Source of the DNA: Rozella allomycis CSF55
Taxonomy: Eukaryota
Reading direction: 5' to 3'
DNA length: 50,535 bases
NCBI GenBank assembly: GCA_000442015.1
Contig: KE561190.1
Location: forward strand, 1 to 50,535
Shown here: in pieces, positions 14,100 to 50,535 of the stretch
How the letters are laid out: each line of letters starts with the position of its first letter
Numbering within the stretch: the first letter of the stretch is position 1
The notes under the pieces: model-generated
The model's input: only the letters and a program-made list of their open reading frames with translations
Databases searched by the model: none
Told to the model about the DNA's origin: nothing
Made by a program: the position numbers and the translations under genes

Positions 14100-14697
14100 A
14101 TGGCGCAGTCATCAAGGCGAGTAATTTCAGTAAACAGACCTTACAATTGAAAGTATAAATTGTTTAATGTAAAATTATTTATTCGTAAAAAACTAAATTT
14201 TAAGTAGAATTTTTAACAAACTCTCGTCAACGGAATAAAACTCAGAAGTGAATACCAATCACCAGAATTCTACGACTCCAGAGCATCATATTATTTCCAA
14301 TTCTATTAAAAATTGAGATCATCCAACTATTAGATCGTTGCCATTGCTATTAATTCAAAACTCACTTGTTCCAGGTAATAAAAGATTTCCGAAATTTCAG
14401 AATCCCAGGAATAAATTCTACAATTTTTCTTATAACCCCTGCACAAAAAAGTAAGAAACTTTTCAACATAATCTTTTTATCGTGATGATTGAATTGTCAA
14501 GGTCCGTGTTTCTGAACCACTCTGATTATTCATTGACATCTGATACTTATTGCATATATTCTTTTTGTATTTTACAGTTTCTAACCTTAGGATTCTATCA
14601 TTCTCATTTGTGAACTTAACGTACTTGACATAAAATCGAAATAATAAACATTTTTTCACATTTAAGCTTTCACAAAATAAGCTTTCTTTACAATTTT

Positions 14698-15332
14698 ATG
14701 CGCTTCCCTCTTGCATTTCAAAAAAGAGACATCAGCAAAACTGCTGAACAATCAGAAGGTCGGGCGGTAGGAAACCAAGTTGTTACCAAAATCTTGGAAA
14801 ATGTTGATAGAGAAATTGAAAATATTGAATCAACATTGAATCGCCCGTCGTCATCAAAGAGCCAAAACAAGCGCAGCTCCAGTCGCGAAAGCTTTTCGGG
14901 ATCTTTTGAATGGGTAGGTGAAAGTAACCAGGATTCTCCCGTGATAATTCAAAGCGAGGGAGGTGTCAGTAGGATGGAAGATGTTAGATCAATCGAGGGC
15001 GACGTTGCGTCACAAGATTCATTGCAGTGCTCATTTAAAGATCTATCATTGATCAAAAATGCAGAATCTCAAACAGAAGGAAAGGTACATTACGTTCCTC
15101 TTGCCAAGGACTATTCAAAATGGAAACGAAAAAATGAAATTATGAAATTGAAGGCGAGTCCTTTTGGCGGGGAAAGTTATCGACATGGTGTTTCGTGTTT
15201 GCTTTCGGGTAAAAATTATTCAATTTATTTGTAAGAGTTATGGTGGGGTGTGGACTAATGTGGTGGTATTTAAATGAACTGAAAGGTGGTTACAAAAAGT
15301 CAAATTGTATTTTCTTTTCATACTGCTATTAA
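14698..15332 (+). CDS. Hypothetical low-complexity protein, possibly with a C-terminal transmembrane anchor
   Basis: 178-aa ORF. A 29-nt GT-AG intron near 15209 would continue it into ...GVSCLLSVMVGCGLMWWYLNELK. The 3' end is uncertain. Confidence 0.45.
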
Positions 15333-15375
15333 ATTTGTTTATTCAATTTTCAAATGCATTCTTCATTAGGCGATT

Positions 15376-16337
15376 CTATTTTACTGGGTCAACTTTATCC
15401 TTTGAGATAGCAAACGATGGTACAATCCATTCGCCACACGAGCATGTAGTACCGCTCCATGAGAAAGATCCAAGCTTATTTTTGCATTTCTTGCAATATA
15501 TCTATAAATGACTTATAAAGAATCATACCTTGCCACTTGGCTGCTGTAGTTCAGTTTCTGTCATAAAAGTCAATGGCTCCGTAAAATATATTCTACACTA
15601 TTTATTAATTATTAAAAATGTCTTACTTCGTTCTTAACTGAATGATCTAGCACATGATTAGATTCCACAACCATACTTCTATGGTCACACGCGCCATAAA
15701 TAAATTACCGGCACTTCCCACACCTTAAGTACGAAAATCTTGAATTTTCTTTGCTTGTATTTTCAATTCTTTCTGTCAAAAATGATGTGATCAAAGGTAG
15801 GTTTTTTGTGTCCAGAACAGATTGAATACCTTTACATTTGCCATCGTTTACATTAAACGAGCATGAAAAGGAGTCGTAAATTTTTAATTGTAGAGTAAAA
15901 CCGCTATTGGGACTATAAAGTTTATAGAAAATGCGTACTGTGCAACAACGTGATTCCTTTTTAGAACCTCGAATGCTTCATCGAACTTCATGGTTTTGTA
16001 CCTCATCAAGTATGCAATAACAATGGTAGCACTTCTAGAAATCCCAGCTGAGCAATGGACAACCAATCTGTTTCTTGGGTTAGCAAGTACAGAATGCATC
16101 TTTTCAGTAATTTCATCGAAAAGAACAAGAAAGTTAAATTCCGGTATATCCTGAATATTATAATTTATGGTTTCAACTCCATTAACTAGACCATCTTGGT
16201 TTAAATGCGCAACGTTGAGTATATGAGTAACCTTGTTTTTCTCAAGTAGCTTTAGATCTCTGGCAGCTGCATAACTAAGTCAATGTATTTTTTGCCTCGT
16301 ACTCAGATATGAATAAGTTTTCTAAAACTACGTCCAT
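15376..16337 (-). CDS. YVH1: Dual-specificity phosphatase YVH1/DUSP12 family
   Basis: Catalytic VHCSAGISRSATIVIAYLM and C-terminal zinc domain (RCGKCR...YCKKCKNKLGSFSWSGTTCSCGEWIVPSFAISKDKVD). Five GT-AG introns. Confidence 0.9.
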
Positions 16338-16876: not shown

Positions 16877-16948
16877 TCTTCGTTAGTATAGCGGTTAGTA
16901 TCTCCGCCTGTCACGCGGAAGACCGGGGTTCGATTCCCCGACGAAGAG
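16877..16948 (+). tRNA. tRNA-Asp(GTC)
   Basis: 72-nt cloverleaf: acceptor TCTTCGT/ACGAAGA, anticodon loop CTGTCAC, T arm GGGG-TTCGATT-CCCC, followed by TTTT. Confidence 0.97.
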
Positions 16949-17021: not shown

Positions 17022-18518
17022 ATGACCTCACTGGCTTTCTTTTTGCTTATTATGTTGCAGGCCACTTTGTTAAAGACTTTGACCATTTGTGGTATTTGTA
17101 ACAGTGCAATAATGGAAGAAAGTCGTACTCAAACGTACACATTATCATACGATAGAAAATTTTACTACAAAATACAAGCGTGCAATCATGAATCAAAGTT
17201 CCATAATAATTGTATAGAAAGGTATATTTCGAGTGCCACTGCCGTTGTACATGACGAAGAAGAAACTGCAATTCCATCTCCGACATGCAACCATAGTATA
17301 AGTGTTCTTTCGTATGGGAAGGTTTTAGACCGTCAATTAAAGGAAATTTCTTGGGTATCATATTTGTTATTCTCTGTCTTGCAGAGCCCTGCACGGGTCG
17401 GATTTCAAGACCCGCGACCCGCAACCAGCCAGAAGCGGTAACTTGCGACCCACCCCACTAAATTTCAACTTCCAAAATCTCGACCCGCGACCCAACCCGC
17501 AGATTATACCCTGGTTTAGGTGGCTGGCATCTGAACCATTTCGTTTCATGTTTTATGCCAAATTTTATGAATATCATTATAGCAGTAAATCATTTTGCAT
17601 TGACTATTACTATATATATTTTATAACAACCTAGTACATTCCAATGATAAATGATCATACGTTACTCTTTTGAGTTTGGCATATCGTGGGCCCGTGGCTA
17701 GATCTGTAGGGCTATGTTATATGTATAACAGGAAATGTTATCATCCTAGTCTAATTAGTCTTTGTCTATTTTCAAATTTCTTTCATGAATAAATGGTCTA
17801 AAAAAATAATATATTAATGATTAACAGCACTTATCGACCAAAATGTAGTTATGACAAATTTTGACGCATAATGTCCCGCGCCAATATTTTAAACGGTTGC
17901 TTAAATCAAGATATTATATTAAATAAGCACAGTTTGGCCACTCAGTAAGGCAGGCATAGTTCAGTTGAATATAGAGTTGGCCATGAGCCAGCCGGCAACC
18001 GTTCGAGCCCTGACGTTTTGCTATTTTTTCATAAATAGCCCAACCAACTTCGACCCGCAACCCACCCATCATAAAAAATGTAGACCCGCAACCCAACCCA
18101 TTTGGCTATTTGCGGGTCGTGGGTTGGGTTTTTTGCGGGTCTGACCTGCAGACCCAAACCCGTGCAGGGTTCTGCTGTCTTGACAAGTCATGGCACAAAG
18201 GAGATTGCCGTGCACGCCGTGTCTTCATTTGTTTTAGAGCGATTGGATTTACTATCTACGGAAAAAGAATATTTTACTATGTCTGAAAGTCCTCAAAGTA
18301 GAATAACTATTGAGAGTTCAAGAATTGCACTATTTGAATCGATGATTATTCCACTGTTAATAAGTGCTTCATACTCCTATTGGGTCAATCCTCTTTTCCC
18401 ATTTTCTTTGCTCCGCCAGGAAGATTTGCGTCAACTGCTTAGATTGTTTTCTGCACAGTATTTTGTCATATTATTCAATGTTGTTTTATTGAAACTCTTC
18501 CATAGAGATAGACGATAG
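17022..18518 (+). pseudogene. Signal-peptide/RING/transmembrane gene disrupted by a hAT insertion
   Basis: Removing 17382-18182 fuses ...LLFSVL to TSHGTKE... in frame (231 aa). RING ligands are CGIC...CNH...H..C...SPTC, with the 7th Cys replaced by Ser (TCT). Confidence 0.8.
17382..18174. mobile_element. Non-autonomous hAT-superfamily DNA transposon (793 bp)
   Basis: 17-bp TIRs CAGAGCCCTGCACGGGT / ACCCGTGCAGGGTTCTG (1 mismatch); perfect 8-bp TSD CTGTCTTG at 17374-17381 and 18175-18182; subterminal ACCCGC repeats; no transposase. Confidence 0.92.
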
Positions 18519-18642
18519 TATTTAAATAAATACTTTAACTCATCAAAATTTTAATGACGCTGACACTTGATGTCCTAAATAGATCTTTCATATGATGTTT
18601 CCACGAGGCATGCATAACCTTACGCCACATTTTTTTCGCCTA

Positions 18643-19272
18643 ATGATCTTTCGACTTGGACTCCTCATCCTAGCTTTACTTAGCGTTGTCAAAGCTTCGG
18701 ATGATCATGACTGCACTATTTGCCTAGATGTTGTCCGGGATTCCCATAGATTTTCCAAGGTTATGCTTTCAAGTTCTGATAGAAGCGTTATTCGTATTTC
18801 TCTATGTCCTCATGTATTTCACGAAAAATGTATTGACAAATGGTTATCCTCGCCCACAGGATCACAACAGCCCTCTTGCCCTAACTGCCGACGAAAAATT
18901 TTTACCTTCAAGCTATCAGAGATCTTTATAGGTATTAATCTCTCCTTATTGTTATTTCTAATGAACAGTATTTTTAGATGGGACGTTTCTTACCTAAAAC
19001 TGAGCTTGCACTCTCTTCCACTAATCTTTGGCTATCTAAAGACCAATGCTTACAATGACTCTGGTGAAAATGTAAAAGTTTCAAATCTTGCATTGATTTT
19101 GATGACATTTATTACAGTCTGTGATTTTCTTCAATGGGGTTTAGCGAATACAATGGTTACCAATGTTTCAAATGGCCTAAATTCAACACAAATAGATCCA
19201 ATAGCGTTCAAAGTGTTGTATTTGATACTGCTTAAAGCATGGTCCATTAATAATATTCAAGAAGAAAATTAG
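18643..19272 (+). CDS. RING-H2 E3 ligase-like protein with an N-terminal signal peptide and C-terminal transmembrane segments
   Basis: MIFRLGLLILALLSVVKA|SDDHD followed by CTIC...CPHVFHEKCIDKW...CPNC (C3H2C3), then 3-4 hydrophobic segments. The in-frame ATG at 18592 is an alternative start. Confidence 0.85.
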   Translation: MIFRLGLLILALLSVVKASDDHDCTICLDVVRDSHRFSKVMLSSSDRSVIRISLCPHVFHEKCIDKWLSSPTGSQQPSCPNCRRKIFTFKLSEIFIGINLSLLLFLMNSIFRWDVSYLKLSLHSLPLIFGYLKTNAYNDSGENVKVSNLALILMTFITVCDFLQWGLANTMVTNVSNGLNSTQIDPIAFKVLYLILLKAWSINNIQEEN

Positions 19273-19298: not shown

Positions 19299-20636
19299 TT
19301 ATATAAGGTTGTATCGATATACATGGTTTCTTCTATTTTGAAACAAGCTAGTCCAGTATCGCTTAGCATTCTTTCGAAAACCAATAAGCCCAGCACAAAA
19401 AACCAATGAACAAAGTAGTAGTGGTTTCGGTTGAAAAAATGGGCTTTCAATTTTTTCAAAAGATATTTTTCCGCCGTTCAAGATATAATATGCCGCCCCT
19501 GGAGTCCACGAAAGGTTAATAATTTCCACTGTTGAATCATCGTGCTTTGAAAATTCGAATCCTTCAAAAAGTACATTTAATTCCCATGTTGCTTTGAAAC
19601 AAAGTTGTTCAATTTTCTCCTTGGATAATTTGGGATGTTTATTTTTAAGGACTACATAAGGTGTTTCACAAACTTCCTTTCCGAGGGCTTTGAATTCTGA
19701 ATAGCTTAGTCTACTTCTATTGAAAGAAAGATCACGCAAAGAATAATAAAAATCAGATAGCCCAACAAATTTAATATCTTCTAAACATCAAGTCTGTGAA
19801 CATATCTTACTCAAATCTTTTAAAGGAGCATGAACACCGTTAAAATAACAAGGTTCGTCCAGGCATTTTTTGGATTTATTAAGCAACTTTTTTACATGAT
19901 CAGAACATGTTTCAAAACTAGTTCCCTCTTTACAAACATTCTGACTTTCACTCTCCAAAAATTTCTTTCTCGCTTCGTTTGCTCCAAATCCTAGAAAAGT
20001 TTTAGCAAATACGTAAAATGAGTCATTGTTGACTTCTACGTGAACCAAATCTTCTATATGGTTTTCAACAGTATTTTCATCAGCCTTGAATGCTATTTGC
20101 ATGCTAGCGCCTCCCATCTCTACAATCCCAAATATTTCAGACAATGCTACGTTTGGGTATTTATCATTTAATTCCAAATTTACAGATAAGAAAGAAAAGA
20201 CCGCTTCTTCATAACCAGTTATGATTCTAACGTTCGCTTCATTTACAAACAGGCCAAAGGAAAGCAAACTTTCATAAGATAGTCTCAAAATTTCTTGCGC
20301 TTTACTCTCGCTTAATAATCTTAAGCCAGCCGTCGCGAACATTGACACTTCTACTTTTTCTTTCTCTTCACCAACTTCTTGCAGTATAGGACTCAACATA
20401 TTGTGCAGGTATTCTTTTATTTCACCAGTACTATCTTTTAATGATGAAATTCCTGGGTTAACATCATTATTTTTTAATAGTATAGGTCGATTTGTCACCG
20501 GCGAAAATTTGTATAGATAAGCCCTCGTGCCTGAAGATCCAGCATCTATCAAGAGTGCGTATTTTTCATCAGAAGGATTTACTGGCAAGCTAACCACTAT
20601 AAGTAGCAGGAAAGCGAAAACCTGCCAGAACAACAT
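19299..20636 (-). CDS. GDA1/CD39 family nucleoside phosphatase (apyrase), 2 exons
   Basis: Apyrase conserved regions IDAGSSGTR, ATAGLRLL, ITGYEEA, VEMGGASMQI and SWTPGAA; hydrophobic N- and C-terminal segments. Confidence 0.92.
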
Positions 20637-34004: not shown

Positions 34005-37000
34005 ATGGTAATGCCCCAAACAAATTTTCATACATCATCTACTGATGTAGTGCCTAGCAGTAGTCCTCTAAGAAATGTGCTTGATGTATTTAACGAGCCA
34101 AGAGTCACTAGATGTCACATTTCCGAGCTGTCACAATTTGAAGGATTCTTTTCAGTGAGCGAGTCGCCAACGGACAAGGTTTCTGATTTGGAGATTGTAT
34201 TGAATCACTCTGCAAGCAGTGATTTGATGAGGCTGTGTGGTGGTGGAGATTTAGAGGAAAGTGTGAAAATGGCAATTTTGAATATATACAGGCCTGGAAT
34301 CGATGGGATAATGAATATGCCAAAGGAGGAAATGAATTTATGTTTGGTTAAGAATGCGTTGTATTTAAAGTCGATTGAAAGTTGGNGGTATTGAATCAAT
34401 CTACAAGCAGTGATTTGATGAGGCTGTGTGATGGAGATTTAGAAGAAAGTGTGAAACTGGCAATTTTGAACAGATATAGGCCTGGAATAGATGGGATAAT
34501 GAATATGCCAAAGGACGAAATGCATTTATGTTTGGTTAAGAATGCGTTGTATTTAAAGTCGATTGGAAGTTGGGATTTAAGGAGGCAATATGTGTTTGTA
34601 GATTCTTATTTGCAGATGATGCTTAATGAAAATGATTTTATCTATGACAAGAAAAATCAAATATGTTTGAGTTTGAATGAATACTTGAGAGTGTTTTGTG
34701 AAAGTTTGGTTAGAATTGAAATCTTTAGGGATGTTGTGAATGAATACATGAAAAATTTGGTTAAGCGATATAGAAATAGAGTGGCTGGACAATGGATTCT
34801 ATTTTTATTGATGATTTTTAAATATTCTATAATTGATTGTTTGAAAGTTAATGAGAATTTTCAACGATTGGTTGTTGAATACCTGAGTAGAGATTCTCAA
34901 GAAAATGAAGATTTGGTTATAGAAAGGATGCATAATGTTGTTTTTTTGAATGAAAATGTTATTGGAAATTTTATTTGGGAATCATTTAAGAGGCGGAATT
35001 TCAGGCCATTTAAAAGATCAATTGAAAACGCTTTAGATTTACATGAAAAATATTTAGAAAAGAATTCCAAACAGAAATCAATAATAAGTTCATTTTTGAG
35101 ACAAATCCCTGAAAGAATGGAAGAGTTTAACAATGAGAGCATTGAACAAGTTTTTAAGTTTATTTCAAAGGCTATAAAGTATGAAGATGAAAGCATTACA
35201 AGTATTTCTTGTAGAATTAAAATAAAATTTACATCAATCAAACTTGCTATTGAATTTTACTTCAATCTATTAAATTATTGGATTGAAAGGAAAGAAAAGC
35301 AGCCAAATCTAATTAAGAAAATTTTATCTTTTTATGAAAAAGTATTTAGAGATTTGGATGTTTCATTTGATATAAAGGAATTAATGTTGATTAAGATAAG
35401 ATCTGTTCTAAATTTAGAATGTGGCTGTTGCTATTTTATGACGCAACAACAAGAATTGATTCATCCAATATTGTTTAAAATAAATGAAAAAGATTTAGTT
35501 TTAGAAATTTGTTTAAATTTTCTTCAAAGTTTGATTTTGATGAAGAAAATAGTTGATGCTAAAAATAACTTTTCAATTGACAATCAAATTGAACAAGATT
35601 TAGAAGATGATTGGGATGACATTGAAATAGAAGATGAAAACAACAATTTTAATCAAGAAGATTTCAATAAATGTTATTCAGATTGTTTAAACATCTCCAA
35701 GGGTGAAATGTTGTCTTTTATTGAATCAAGCGTTTCTCTTCAAAGTAACAAAGCATGGGCGTGTCTTTTAAAGTTATTTGAACTCTTTGGTTCAGAGCAA
35801 GTAATTAAATCTTTCATTTATTATCTAGTTTATGAAAAATATTATTCAGAAACATTTGAATGCAAAATCTCTTTGTAATTCAACGTTGAATGAATGGAAC
35901 TCTGTTCTAGATCTTTTAAATAAATTCGAATATATTTTTCAGAGTCTAGACTGGCCAGATAGACTCTGTTTCTACATAATCTCTATAATGGAAAATCGGC
36001 CATTCAAAAATGCTAATTTAATGGTTGGTACCATTCCATTATTACATACAGATTCAATCAAAGATATCTTCCTTAAACTGAAACAAACAATTGACTCTGA
36101 AATGAACAATTACAATCTTTTTAACAGATTCAACCAAGCCTTGGTCCCAATAATTCATTTTCTAAATCTTAAAGATAATTCAATTTCAATAATTTCATTT
36201 CTACTTTCAAATTGTTTCTCCTTATTGTACAAACCAAATTCTATCAAAGCAATCCAAGTCATATTTCTTAAAAAGTAAGTTTCTATGTCTTCTTTTAGTT
36301 AGTAACACAAAATCATTATTCTACATCCCGCTACTTGAAGGAGTTGCCACTTGTTCAAATTCACCAGACCTTCAACTCTCCAACTACATTTCTGAATCTC
36401 TTGAATTTATTTTCACTCGGAAAAAATATGACATGCTTATTCCAATTCTTAAAAACAGTCAAACATTAAAGAAGTTTCTCATTTCTTATCTTTCCATTAA
36501 ACCCATCACCCCTGCTCATTTTGGTCTATTGTCATCAATTATAAAATCAGAATTCCAAGATTTCAATTTGATAATTGAATACTTTAACCAGATTATTAGG
36601 ATTTGTTACATCCATGCGTTACAGTCAAATAATGCTTTGATCAATTGTAAATCAATGTTCCTATTAGTAGCGGACACATTTGATTATCTGATTCCTTTCA
36701 TTTCAGATTTATTCTACGTCAAAAGTAATCCAACGCTAAGTCTTAACATAGAAATCCTTGTAACATTCAACGTTGAGATGTTGTTTGAATTGATATCAAA
36801 ATACATTTCCATCTGTCTTTATTCAACAGCAAGAGAATACAGAAAATACAATCATTTATCATTCAAGGTCACCGAGATTATCTCTCAACTAGAAAACTTC
36901 AACAGAAGAACAAACCAAACAACCCTTCCACCTAATTTCCCTCAAGTAATTCAACTAAATATCTAAAATAGTGTACAGTAGAAGATGCTCTAAACAGCTG

Positions 37001-37184: not shown

Positions 37185-37679
37185 ATGGCAGAGACGACTG
37201 CATTTTTGTTTTTAAACTCTGTAACATTGTTATCATGGACATGTTTTCTAATCCATTCCATTCATTTCAATATTTTCGATGCATACCAACATTATCTTTA
37301 TGAAGAACACACCCCAATCATGCTGTCAACGATACTTTTCTGCATGACTGTCCCCATAATCAACTTCATTGTACATTATTCAAAAAGACTGAATGTTTAT
37401 AGAGCCTCCATCACTTTTAATATCTTGATTCTCCTGCTGCACAACTTTTTTTGGAAGTACATCCACGATCTCGTGTTTTGGATCGGCACTGGAATGTGTC
37501 CGCTGCAAGATTTGGTAATTCCCGCTATTCTCTCTACGATATCTCTAATTTTTCACTGGTTTACGGTTTTCGCCATGTATGTCTGTTATAGGCGGAGGAA
37601 AATGCAAGCGTCGTTGGTTATACCGCTGTGCATGACTTTGGATACAGAAATTGAAAATGTATTGACAATTAAAGGTTGA
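37185..37679 (+). CDS. Small four-pass membrane protein, hypothetical
   Basis: 164-aa ORF with four hydrophobic segments and a basic stop-transfer (YRRRK). Confidence 0.65.
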   Translation: MAETTAFLFLNSVTLLSWTCFLIHSIHFNIFDAYQHYLYEEHTPIMLSTILFCMTVPIINFIVHYSKRLNVYRASITFNILILLLHNFFWKYIHDLVFWIGTGMCPLQDLVIPAILSTISLIFHWFTVFAMYVCYRRRKMQASLVIPLCMTLDTEIENVLTIKG

Positions 37680-41920: not shown

Positions 41921-42427
41921 ACGATTTAAGTTTTCTGAAAAGTAGGAAAGGAAAAGGTCAAAAGGAATGAAATTTATTTTTCAAAAAAGAATGTTAGCCT
42001 GAAACATTCGAGCAGACAATTGTCATCAAGATTATAAATATAAATATCAGCAGTTTTTTGTTCTAGCTCAGCAGAAACCTTTACGCGAAAACTAATGTAG
42101 GCGCTTTCATTTGGGCCTAAAGATACTTGCTGGGATTTAAATATTATAGTCTCCTTTAAGTCAGTGTTTAACGAAAGGTTTAGAAACTTCTCAGTCTTAT
42201 TGTGATAAATAACTTTCTAGCATGATTTTCAAACAAAGGTTTTNCCTCATTAGAGTTTTGTCTCATTACCTTTCAATAAATCTGATAGTTCTATTCGCCC
42301 ATTAATATTCAAGGCATTGGCAAAGAATATCATTGGTAAGTATACATAGAATTTCATACGATTTAAGATTTTTCTGAAAGTAGGAAAGGAAAAGGTCAAA
42401 AGGAATGAAATTTATTTTTCAAAAAAN

Positions 42428-43768
42428 GATAGCGTGTGTCTACATGTGCATATTTTATAGGAATACCTATGATGTTATATTTATTGATCAGATTTCTTAC
42501 AGTATTCCATTTTTCAAGCTGTTTTGTAAAACCAAGATTGNCATATCATGTATCTACATGTGCATATTTTATAGGAATACCTATGATATTATATTTATTG
42601 ATCAGATTTCTTACAGTATTCCAATTTTCAAGTTGTTTTGTAAAGCCAAGATTGTGTATTATTGCCATTTTCCTGATCAGCTTTTGACCAAAAGGGAAAC
42701 GTTCGTAAAGAAGATCTATCGTTTTGTTTTCGACTATTTAGAAGAAATGACGACTGGTAAAACGTCTGATTTTAATTTTCAGGGTGTGCTGATTTGATTT
42801 TGGTTAATAGCAAGTTTACACTTGATGTCTTTAAGAAAACCTTTACTAGAATAGAAAAGNGAAGAAGATCTATCGTTTTGTTTTCGACTATTTAGAAGAA
42901 TTGACGACTGGTAATACGTCTGATTTTAATTTTCTTTTCAGGGTGTGCTGATTTGATTTTGGTTAATAGCCAGTTTACACTTGATGTCTTTAAGAAAACC
43001 TTTACTAGGATAGAAAAGGAACCATTTATATTGTACCCTTCGATTGATATTCAATCTTACCCTTGCCATGAAGATTGTAAAATATTTAAGAATAGAAAAG
43101 TGGTCTTGTCGATAAACAGGTTTGAAAGGAAAAAGAACATTTCTTTAGCCATTGGTTCTTTTTCGATGATCGATGAAAAGTTATTAAATGACAAGAACCC
43201 GTTGCTTGTAATTGCTGGCGGGTATGATGAAAGACTTTGTGAGAATGTGGAATATTTTAGTGAGCTGTACGATAAATGCTCAAAGCATGGCCTTCATCCT
43301 GTGATATACTCGGAGCAAGAATTTAAAACACTCTCTACGTTTCAAAGAATCAATAAATTGGAGGCCATCGCACCCACAAATAGGGTGTTGCTCATTCCGT
43401 CATTTTCCAAAGAATGTCGAGATCTGTTGCTTCAAAACGCCACCGTTTTGATTTACACTCCTGAAAATGAACATTTTGGAATTGTTCCAATTGAAGCAAT
43501 GTGCTCTGAAATTCCCGTAATTGCATTAAATTCAGGTGGACCAAAAGAATCAATAGTAGACGGTATAACTGGGTTTTTGGCTCATCAAAATGAAAAGGCC
43601 ATTGCTGAAAAAATAAATCTTTTATTGTCGAATGAGAAATTGCAACGGGAAATGGGAAGAAAAGGACGTGAGAGAGTGAATAATTTGTTTTCTTTAAAGT
43701 CTTTTGCTAAAATGCTTGAATCATTCATTGAAGGATTAAATAACCACAATAAAGTTAAAAATAAATAA
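42428..43768 (+). CDS. ALG2: Alpha-1,3/1,6-mannosyltransferase ALG2, 5' part missing at the N join
   Basis: [42 protein letters not shown] and [16 protein letters not shown]; allele duplicates at N 42541 and 42860. Confidence 0.93.
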
Positions 43769-47918: not shown

Positions 47919-50535
47919 CTTTTGAAATGATAGTGTCGGTTTTCTTTAAAGGCATGGAGAACTCTTTGCTTATTGGGGGTTCTTCAAACTGCAATTCAAG
48001 AATATATTTTCTTGTCTCATTTTTGTCTTAAACAATTAAGGATTGAAAATTACTTTGAATGCAAAATTTGCTTTCGTTTGCTTTTTNGTCGGTTTTCTTT
48101 AAAGCGATGGAAAACTCTTTGCTTATTGGGGGTTCTTCAAACTGTAAATCAAGAATATATTGTCTTGTCTCATTTTTGTCTTAAACAAATAAGGATTGAA
48201 AATTACTTTGAATGCAAAATTTGATTTCGTTTGCTTTTTTTGTAAGAACTTGAATTGTAAAACTGTTTAATTCATTGGAAAACACCTTTTGTCAAATCAT
48301 GGATGGCAAGTACTTTGATATTTTGATCAAAGTAAAATATTGAATCTTTGCAACATCCTTTCAAAGGGAATGAAAAGCAAGATGGGATTTTGTTCCTTGA
48401 AGTTTTTATTACAAGCCTTTCATATAGAATAGGCGTAATTAGTATTTTCCCTACTAGCTCATTTTGGCGGTATAAAAACACGTCATATTCATTTCTATTA
48501 AGATTTAGGGGATCTTTAAATATGACATCCAACCCCTTATTCTACAAGTGTCTTTTAACGTAACAATACCTTATTGGGAACTACGTCAATACCTTTTGTA
48601 GGACAATAGGCATTATCAAAGTTTTCTTCCATATAAACCGAATGTTTCAATTGTTTTTCATTGATTTCTATTTGAATTTTATGAATAGCCAGGACAGAAC
48701 AAGGATGCACTAGGAGGTTTATATCAATTGAAGCAAACAGCCAATTATTATTACAAAAAACGTCAATCTTTATAAGATATGATTTAGTTTAGCACCTTTT
48801 CTAATCTTTCTCTAAGGCTAATTTCATAAATGTTTAACAAAAGGGGAATGTGCTTTTTTTCAATTTTATCTAATTCAAATTTGTCAAACTCTAAATTTTT
48901 AAAGGTGTTTGATTTTATGAAAAAAGTATTTCTCTCATTTGAAAGATTTAACAACTCCAATTCATACTGAATTTTACTTCCTTGAATGTACTCCATTGAA
49001 TATGCCACTGTTTTATTGGCATTAATGGTCTTTTCTAAAAGATGAAAATATCTATCATGGCATTCTTTGGCAATCAAATTCTTCTCCAAAGTATTTGGAG
49101 GCTGATTGGGATCAATGCCATATTTTTCTATTTCGTGGGCNGAAATATCTATCATGGCATTCTTTGGCAATCAAATTTTTCTCCAACGTATTTGGAGGCT
49201 GATTGGGATCAATTCCATATTTTTCTATTTCGTGAGCGATTGAATCATCTCCGTTGTGAATTTTATTAATTAGATTGCTTAAAGTTTTGTTGCTTTTTAA
49301 AACCTATTGAGATACGGTTTAAATATTACATGGTTTGCCGAAACTGAAAGGAATGGTTGGTAGTTATCTTCAGAGATGATTGATGCAAATGTTTTTAATA
49401 AATTCGTCTCATTGTCTTTTAAAGGGTTACTATTAGAAGTGTGGTAACCAAAAGATAAAACCAAGGAGCTTTCTGTATTTTCTATCGGCACCTTCTCCAT
49501 GAACTGTAAATTTTCATATTCTTTAGTCAATGGGATATCCAGAACTGCCACNATGAAAGTTCGAGATAAAGGGTCATCTGTTGGCGAAATAGAAAATGGA
49601 TTAACAATACAAATATCAATTTTAGGTATTGAAAATTATTCATCTGAAAATTGCTTGAAAAACATACGTATTTCCTGTCCATTTAGTCCTACAAGGCAGT
49701 TAAACCTGGATATTAAAGATGTGAATAAACACTCTAATGCATTAATTCTTAACAGTGGTAAGAATATATATTACTATGGAAAGAAACGTTAAGTTTTGAA
49801 ATTAATGCATTCTGTATGAAAAAGATGAAAAGGTTACGCGCCACATTTGAAGTGATCGGACCTATTTTTAGCGAAGTGGCAGTTCTGGATATCCCATTGA
49901 CTAAAGAATATGAAAATTTACAGTTTATGGAGAAAGTGCTTATAGAAAATACAGAAAGCTTCCTGGTTGTATCTTTTGGTTACCACACTTTTAATAGTAA
50001 CCCTTTAAAAGACAATGAGACGAATTTATTAAAAACATTTGNTGCAATTAGTATTTTCCCTGTGAGCTCATTTTGGCGGTATAAAAACACGTCATATTCA
50101 TTTCTATTTAGATTTATGGGATCTTTAAATATGACATCGAACCCCTTATTCTACAAGTGTCTTTTAACGTAACAATACCTTATTGGGAACTACGTCAATA
50201 CCTTTTGTAGGACAATAGGCATTATCAAAGTTTTCTTCCATATAAACCGAATGTTTCAATTGTCTTTCATTGATTTCTATTTGAATTTTATGAATAGCCA
50301 GGACAGGACAAGGATGCACAAGGAGGTTTATATCAATTGAAGCAAACAGCCAATTATTATTACAAAAAACGTCAATCTTTATAAGATATGATTTAGTTTA
50401 GNGTTCGTTTAAAAATTTAGAGTTTGACAAATTTGAATTAGATAAAAATGAAAAAAAGCACATCCCCCTTTTGTTAAACATTTATGACATTGACGTTAGA
50501 GAAAGATTAGAAAAGGTGCTAAACTAAATCATATC
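47919..50535. other. Mosaic of short N-joined contigs carrying allelic copies of one hypothetical coding region in both orientations
   Basis: ~49388-49551 (-) matches ~49876-50041 (+); ~48436-48791 matches ~50045-50401; the reverse complement of ~48776-48905 matches ~50406-50535. Copies differ by scattered substitutions. Confidence 0.7.

Follow-up and report, generated by a model that had tools for sequence, protein, structure and literature searches.

Rozella allomycis is an endoparasite of the water mould Allomyces, it parasitises Allomyces species, and a host cisterna wraps it. Inside the host the parasite occupies a compartment, and it phagocytoses host cytoplasm (PMC6317583). The locus described here raises the question of whether such an organism encodes ubiquitin ligases that act on the proteins of its host. 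The original prediction, which assumed an intracellular parasite and was right in this, pointed to two adjacent genes of similar size in which a hydrophobic leader is followed directly by a RING, and proposed that they encode membrane-tethered ligases facing the host; the location of both genes and the order of leader and RING are as it described them. The window, that is the whole stretch of 50,535 nucleotides that was analysed, is a gene-dense eukaryotic contig (G000:C842 within an 11.86-Mb assembly) with a GC content of about 35%. Genes A and B are adjacent, both lie on the forward strand, and they encode 231 aa (as rebuilt) and 209 aa, respectively.

The pair is flanked by a tRNA-Asp gene and a GDA1/CD39 nucleoside phosphatase. 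The tRNA-Asp(GTC) occupies 16877-16948 (+), its end being 73 bp upstream of the gene A ATG. The apyrase-family gene at 19788-20636 (-) adjoins gene B downstream and has an N-terminal hydrophobic segment; such a neighbour is noteworthy, as Rozella takes ATP from its host. Elsewhere in the window there are two orphans without a Pfam match, one of 166 aa at 9922-10422 (+) with a leader-like start and several cysteines, possibly a secreted protein, and one of 164 aa at 37185-37679 (+) in which a basic stretch comes after three hydrophobic segments. A run of about 50 codons occurs twice at 34005-34394 and 34418-35878 (+), closing one frame and opening the following one; with N bases nearby, it is either a local duplication or an assembly artefact. 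A glycosyltransferase-like frame with N bases at 42405-42797 (+) contains some 35 codons twice over, where probably two alleles have been collapsed in tandem.

An intact and an interrupted RING gene

Gene B (18643-19272, +) is the intact member of the pair, its 209 aa comprising a leader, a RING-H2 recognised by Pfam and a helical hydrophobic tail. The frame is open for 226 codons (18592-19272) with in-frame ATGs at 18592, 18595, 18610 and 18643, and a start at the first of these would add a possible N-terminal extension of 17 codons (18592-18642, +) that has no counterpart in gene A. The ATG at 18643 is favoured because it aligns within one residue with the only start of gene A and because the codon score of the extension is poor. 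The RING-H2 (18712-18888, +) has all eight ligands in C3-H2-C3 order (C24, C27, C55, H57, H60, C63, C79, C82), a loop of 27 residues between ligands 2 and 3, a Trp after ligand 6 (W67), and also I26, L28, P80 and R83. Positions of this type make up the E2-contact surface of RINGs. The Trp is a conserved residue of RING-H2 domains in the available text of PMC3161093. With eight of eight ligands, W67 and scores above the Pfam cut-off in five RING families (14 families being listed), the prediction that gene B is intact and keeps the E2-contact Trp holds.

A model of the gene B RING built on a 26-row alignment (mean pLDDT 78.8) suggests that the domain adopts a RING fold: all of the Foldseek rows listed for it are RING domains or RING-containing complexes, the best at E 7.4e-3 and none at E<=0.001. 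In sequence it matches RNF38, APC11 and RNF13. The full-length single-sequence model was unusable at pLDDT 43.6. The GC and GC3 of gene B are 0.362 and 0.33, compared with 0.345-0.387 and 0.30-0.40 in neighbouring genes, and its codon score of -0.065 exceeds those of its own other two frames but lies below -0.036, the 5th percentile for a set of 66 coding windows.

Gene A (17022-18518, +, 231 codons as rebuilt) encloses a mobile element. Removal of the element and one copy of its target-site duplication brings two pieces into one frame, 120+111=231 codons: a 5' piece (17022-17381, +) with the leader, a degenerate RING and the start of the tail, and a 3' piece (18183-18518, +, 111 codons and the stop) whose hydrophobic segments lie around 18324-18380 and 18435-18491. 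The 3' piece is open over 111 codons in only 9 of 20,000 shuffles, and this is the best-scoring frame for both pieces. As present in the genome, the frame runs from 17022 to 17441 (+) and encodes 139 aa, ending 19 codons into the element; leader and degenerate RING are there and most of the tail is gone. A resemblance of the gene A tail to GtrA (21.1 bits against a cut-off of 26.1) was rejected and is taken as an effect of hydrophobicity.

The degenerate RING-H2 of gene A (17088-17288, +) retains C23, C26, C54, H56, H61, C64 and C89 together with the 27-residue loop between ligands 2 and 3, with S86 in place of the Cys of ligand 7 and Y68 in place of the Trp, positions at which Cys and Trp are found in the other 25 of the 26 aligned rows. 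It has two in-frame insertions, one of them of two residues between ligands 4 and 5, and lacks the full set of eight ligands and Trp that marks a RING-H2; its matches to five Pfam families are all below the cut-off. This damage is separate from the insertion of the element. Since a Cys-to-Ser change in the RING abolished the activity of RHA1B (PMC6461251) and of PbE3-2 (bioRxiv 10.1101/2022.10.26.513834), according to the available parts of both sources, gene A was by analogy probably ligase-dead before the insertion. Gene A had been described as inactivated, and the split by the element, the Ser at ligand 7 and the Tyr for Trp agree with this; we infer the inactivation from these features, and an uninterrupted allele is possible.

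The interrupting sequence (17382-18174, 793 bp) is a non-autonomous hAT-type element, or MITE. Its 17-nt terminal inverted repeats (17382-17398 and 18158-18174) start with CAG, it has subterminal GACCCGC repeats and no coding frame, and repeat comparison finds an 8-bp target-site duplication with its left copy at 17374-17381 and its right copy at 18175-18182, the length that is the rule for hAT elements. In all of these features it is like other non-autonomous hAT elements, and it differs from typical MITEs in its low copy number, with two full copies among 12 genome matches. The second full copy, in G000:C217, shares 94% identity with this one and is flanked by an 8-bp duplication of a different sequence. 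A rearranged copy with internal duplications is located in G000:C707 at 14484-16298 (L010, L018), and older partial copies are seen on contigs C29, C861, C199 and C119. The genome has hAT dimerisation domains at nine places, eight of them over the cut-off; the end pattern of the element has seven genome matches, none at these nine places, and one is on contig C217 but about 36 kb off. A perfect duplication and the absence of stops suggest that the insertion into gene A is recent, which would mean that hAT-type elements have moved recently in this compact parasite genome. No second copy of gene A or B was found in the assembly, and a collapsed heterozygous site at the insertion is possible. The element was also considered as an intron and rejected, the best short candidate scoring 1.8.

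Both genes had been called intronless. Short introns are common in the Rozella genome, 54 of 70 junction groups being 26-29 nt long (some groups come from overlapping loci), and candidates were scored by a matrix trained on those junctions against a background of 27,276 nt of long open frames. The best candidate in gene B scores 8.0, a level reached 107 times in the background. Gene A has a 26-nt GT-AG candidate at 17296-17321 (+) with a score of 12.9, reached five times, and this is what speaks against the claim. Splicing it would lead into an alternative hydrophobic stretch whose frame closes about 54 codons later, and the main frame scores +5.3 on the opening 34 codons of the 3' piece, compared with -5.9 for the alternative; the candidate is disfavoured by open-frame length and codon usage. 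Because its use would close the frame early, the sequence favours two intronless genes.

Kinship of the pair and the search for relatives

The leader and RING of genes A and B can be aligned over 70 residues at 27% (E 5.6e-8); none of 500 shuffles reaches the RING score. They have the 27-residue loop in common and the distance from leader to RING is equal within one residue, while their tails show no sequence similarity (z -0.14 and -1.38). The best match of the gene A RING is gene B, first of 98 (75, the next reaching 71) in a set whose other 97 members were picked for likeness to B, and 46 other Rozella RING loci score at most 54 against it. Because of the RING similarity, the adjacency and the common loop, the two are likely to be tandem duplicates.

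PF13639 has 47 matches in the genome and PF12678 has 29. A rule that requires a single frame to contain an ATG, a hydrophobic leader and a RING was applied to 52 loci (47 of PF13639, four RINGv and the gene A locus); it misses genes with an intron between leader and RING and RINGs too diverged for Pfam, and it returns A and B only. The family thus has two members and is not an expanded one, so that the proposed evolution by birth and death rests on one pair, 2 of 52 loci fitting the rule. Some other Rozella loci may be recorded here. G000:C691 (L031) and G000:C992 (L044) contain two diverged peroxin-like genes with C-terminal RINGs, apparently paralogs, and the internal repeat of L031 may be an assembly artefact. 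Two RING-H2 domains without leaders are found about 600 bp apart in G000:C878 at 48168-48902 (L027, L043), possibly one intron-split gene or a tandem pair. In G000:C806 a 337-aa open frame (L004:1950-2960, +) with seven hydrophobic peaks resembles an orphan seven-helix receptor.

Outside the genome, a word-index search found no relative of gene B among 178 candidates of 114-366 aa. A HMMER search over 1.84 billion representatives gave 97 hits, none reaching beyond the RING region, as all best stretches fall within query residues 5-121; none of the 81 hits with a pattern-locatable RING has the leader-RING-tail layout of B (the other 16 are without a locatable RING). One hit of 111 aa (P0067) has a leader-like start and a RING and is without the tail. 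A metagenome scan yielded eight loci from 63 candidate stretches, all RING-only, and a viral scan yielded one of three, covering query residues 55-112 only. Atlas look-alikes of the whole of B reach at most 0.86, are mostly giant-virus RING clusters and are rated as a lead only, and the B tail gave no usable atlas hit. For the 5' piece of gene A no relative was found among 252 longer proteins; the 3' piece was compared within its own genome, Pfam and NCBIfam, and the NCBIfam search returned nothing meaningful. No entry for gene B was seen in public sets of predicted proteins. In an exact look-up all six A and B forms were absent, which is weak evidence because three of four neighbour controls were absent too. 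The searches suggest that A and B are lineage-specific and without orthologues. Orthologues in free-living fungi, which the original prediction had named as an observation that would count against it, were not found among the 1.84 billion representatives.

Topology and the site of action

The leader calls for both genes rest on hydropathy and general charge rules. The signal-peptide-like leader of gene B (residues 1-18, 18643-18696, +) has a 12-residue hydrophobic core (residues 5-16) with one Arg before it, ends in V-K-A|S and is followed by acidic residues (S-D-D-H-D), and the charge difference between its flanks, C minus N, is -4 (-5 if counted from the first upstream ATG). According to the charge-difference rule, a negative value orients a leader N-in and C-out. 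The sequence therefore favours a RING that is luminal or external whether or not the leader is cleaved. As this would put the RING outside the parasite cytosol, an ATL-like reading with a cytosolic RING is disfavoured. The leader of gene A (residues 1-14, 17022-17063, +) has a 9-residue core and a flank charge difference of +1, which makes its orientation ambiguous; it is presumably cleaved after Ala14 by the -3/-1 rule.

The tail of gene B (18922-19248, +), for which no relatives were found, contains three helices, hydrophobic or amphipathic, near residues 94-111, 149-167 and 184-202. The 19-residue Kyte-Doolittle peaks are 1.83, 1.81 and 1.47 in the tail of B and 1.10, 1.41 and 1.92 in that of A, compared with 2.85 and 2.73 in two Rozella PA-TM-RING-like proteins and 3.28, 2.42 and 2.48 in the MARCH-like Rozella protein L096; the segments of one multi-pass Rozella control protein peak at 1.6-2.85. 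Of the multi-spanning, tethered architecture that had been predicted, the three hydrophobic tail segments are present, and their peaks of at most 1.92 are below the 2.4-3.3 of other Rozella RING-ligase segments. Segment 94-111 of gene B is flanked by a charge of +3 towards the RING and of +1 at its far end, a bias seen in ligases whose RING is cytosolic and one that suggests a cytosolic RING here. The expectation that a signal peptide would put the RING outside the cell's own cytosol is hence supported by the core, the V-K-A end and the flank charge of the B leader, and weakened by the ambiguous leader of A and the charge at segment 94-111.

The reading that we prefer, and to which we give an even chance, is that gene B encodes a RING-H2 ubiquitin ligase which is exported by Rozella and aimed at host proteins. 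Guided by the predicted leader, the chain would enter the ER and its RING would come to lie in the lumen. The ER lumen would offer no E1 or E2, and a RING that is kept intact for such a compartment would be best explained by action after export. The exported protein would borrow Allomyces E2~ubiquitin and tag host proteins at the parasite-host interface; more speculatively, its tail may be an anchor in the interface membrane that leaves the RING in the host cytosol, or a soluble helical domain that binds substrates. Gene A would be an old tandem duplicate, its RING having drifted to a probably ligase-dead state while the frame stayed open, and this copy would then have been cut recently by the hAT MITE. 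In favour of export, both genes are orphan, small, clustered and apparently fast-diverged, by analogy with the phylloxera SPRINGs as described in the available part of PMC6892190. Against it count the charge of segment 94-111, the ambiguity of the A leader, the upstream ATGs, the weak hydrophobicity of the tail, the compartment around Rozella, a family of two members, the low codon score of B and its absence from the public protein sets.

The charge of +3 between the RING and segment 94-111 fits a different arrangement, which we consider somewhat unlikely: B would be a MARCH/Doa10-like ligase in an ER, Golgi or phagosome membrane of the parasite itself, the leader being bypassed or forming a hairpin, the RING staying cytosolic and the tail helices spanning the membrane and picking substrates. 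The order of a RING and then hydrophobic segments is also that of the MARCH-like L096, an intact E2 surface is most easily maintained in a compartment that contains E2, and a parasite that phagocytoses host cytoplasm has membranes to regulate (PMC6317583). However, the B leader has its 12-residue core, the acidic residues after it and a charge difference of -4, and the six residues from leader to Cys1 leave no room for a second pass. The domain is a RING-H2 and not a RINGv (15.7 bits against a cut-off of 21.6), the tail is far less hydrophobic than that of L096, and housekeeping ligases usually have orthologues, of which none was found for B. If the RING were cytosolic, B would be an orphan own-cell ligase of little general interest.

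Export followed by insertion in the host-derived membrane around Rozella would reconcile the leader, which says out of the parasite, with the basic patch before segment 94-111, which says cytosol side. The RING would then lie in the Allomyces cytosol and A would be a retired decoy, an arrangement that we regard as unlikely. If true, B would be a fungus-on-fungus, eukaryotic counterpart of the viral K3/K5 ligases, and it would remodel the interface membrane or the host organelles that are recruited and engulfed by Rozella.

That A and B are secreted or surface proteins whose RING is only a zinc-binding or binding module, such as a decoy sequestering host E2 or another partner, with gene A as the end state of drift, seems improbable to us. 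Gene A did keep a 231-codon open frame despite the loss of Cys7 and Trp, and in the available parts of the sources an RHA1B mutant without ligase activity continued to block one immune pathway (PMC6461251) and the NemLGF2 RINGs are discussed as interaction modules (PMC4928854); yet B has the full ligand set together with the Trp and the Arg that follows ligand 8, which a decoy could dispense with. It is very improbable that both genes are unexpressed or decaying relics, for instance of an old giant-virus acquisition, with a layout that has no current function, since the interruption of gene A, the low codon score of B, its absence from public protein sets and the mostly giant-virus atlas look-alikes (at most 0.86, a lead only) are set against a frame of 226 open codons in which the RING is complete, GC and GC3 like those of neighbouring genes and a viral scan with one RING-only match.

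Comparison with known RING proteins

With export of B towards the host as the preferred reading, the pair can be placed among described systems. MARCH and the viral K3-K5 ligases have an N-terminal RING-CH (RINGv), basic residues between the RING and the hydrophobic segments, and no leader. B resembles them in that hydrophobic segments come after an N-terminal RING, separated from it by basic residues, and differs in its leader, its RING-H2 and the weaker hydrophobicity of the segments; its ligands 4 and 5 are both His, which departs from the C4-H-C3 pattern of RINGv, and PF12906 is under its cut-off. Plant ATL proteins, as described in the available text of PMC3161093, have a 42-residue RING-H2 spacing and a GLD motif of 12-16 residues between helix and RING. 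They resemble B in a hydrophobic segment ahead of a RING-H2 with the conserved Trp, whereas the B RING spans 59 residues (C24-C82) with its loop of 27, the seven residues from leader core to Cys1 contain no such motif, the leader is short and oppositely charged, and there is an extra hydrophobic tail. The ATL-like arrangement, which had been named beforehand as one that would overturn the host-facing idea, is in these respects not that of B.

Exported RING ligases are a known class, here described from the available parts of the sources cited. Among the microsporidia, the sister lineage of Rozella, the NemLGF2 proteins of Nematocida displodere form a large family averaging 467 aa with a C-terminal RING (PMC4928854), in contrast to the N-terminal RING, 209-231 aa and two members of the Rozella pair. 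The meronts of N. parisii touch the host cytoplasm directly (PMC5423893), whereas Rozella is in a compartment (PMC6317583); further microsporidian signal-peptide RING proteins may be listed in the supplements of PMC5423893 and PMC4928854. The phylloxera SPRINGs number 138, with a median of 252 aa, and are lineage-specific, clustered and fast-evolving proteins with a signal peptide and a RING (PMC6892190); they belong to an insect and are defined by the absence of a transmembrane domain, unlike the Rozella pair with its hydrophobic tail. A search of the literature for a Rozella effector with signal peptide and RING finger found no report, and the available portions of PMC3486916 and PMC3879972 yielded nothing on secreted RINGs.

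The nearest comparison is with secreted RING E3 effectors of known activity, RHA1B of Globodera pallida (PMC6461251) and PbE3-2 / PbRING1 of Plasmodiophora brassicae; PbE3-1 and PbE3-5 of the latter have a predicted signal peptide and a transmembrane domain (bioRxiv 10.1101/2022.10.26.513834). B is like RHA1B and PbE3-2 in combining a signal peptide, predicted in B, with a RING-H2 in a biotrophic parasite, and their secretion and activity were measured whereas B is known from its sequence alone. It is unlike them in the position of the RING six residues after the leader, in the 27-residue loop and in the hydrophobic tail, and neither the word-index nor the HMMER search gave a match to B that extends past the RING. 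The idea of a host-facing RING ligase is thus not new in kind, and genes A and B are a previously unlisted orphan pair. As a whole, the original prediction keeps its intracellular parasite, the leader of B and the lack of an orthologue, and gives way on the family, which is of two, on the tethering, which is uncertain, and on novelty; a host-facing B is plausible and testable and rests on one intact gene. That gene is a small, intact and assayable candidate seemingly missing from public protein sets. Should B ubiquitinate proteins of the host, the range of exported RING ligases would come to include the Rozella-microsporidia stem and a parasite of fungi, while the membrane tail would be an added architecture in a class that is mostly defined as soluble.
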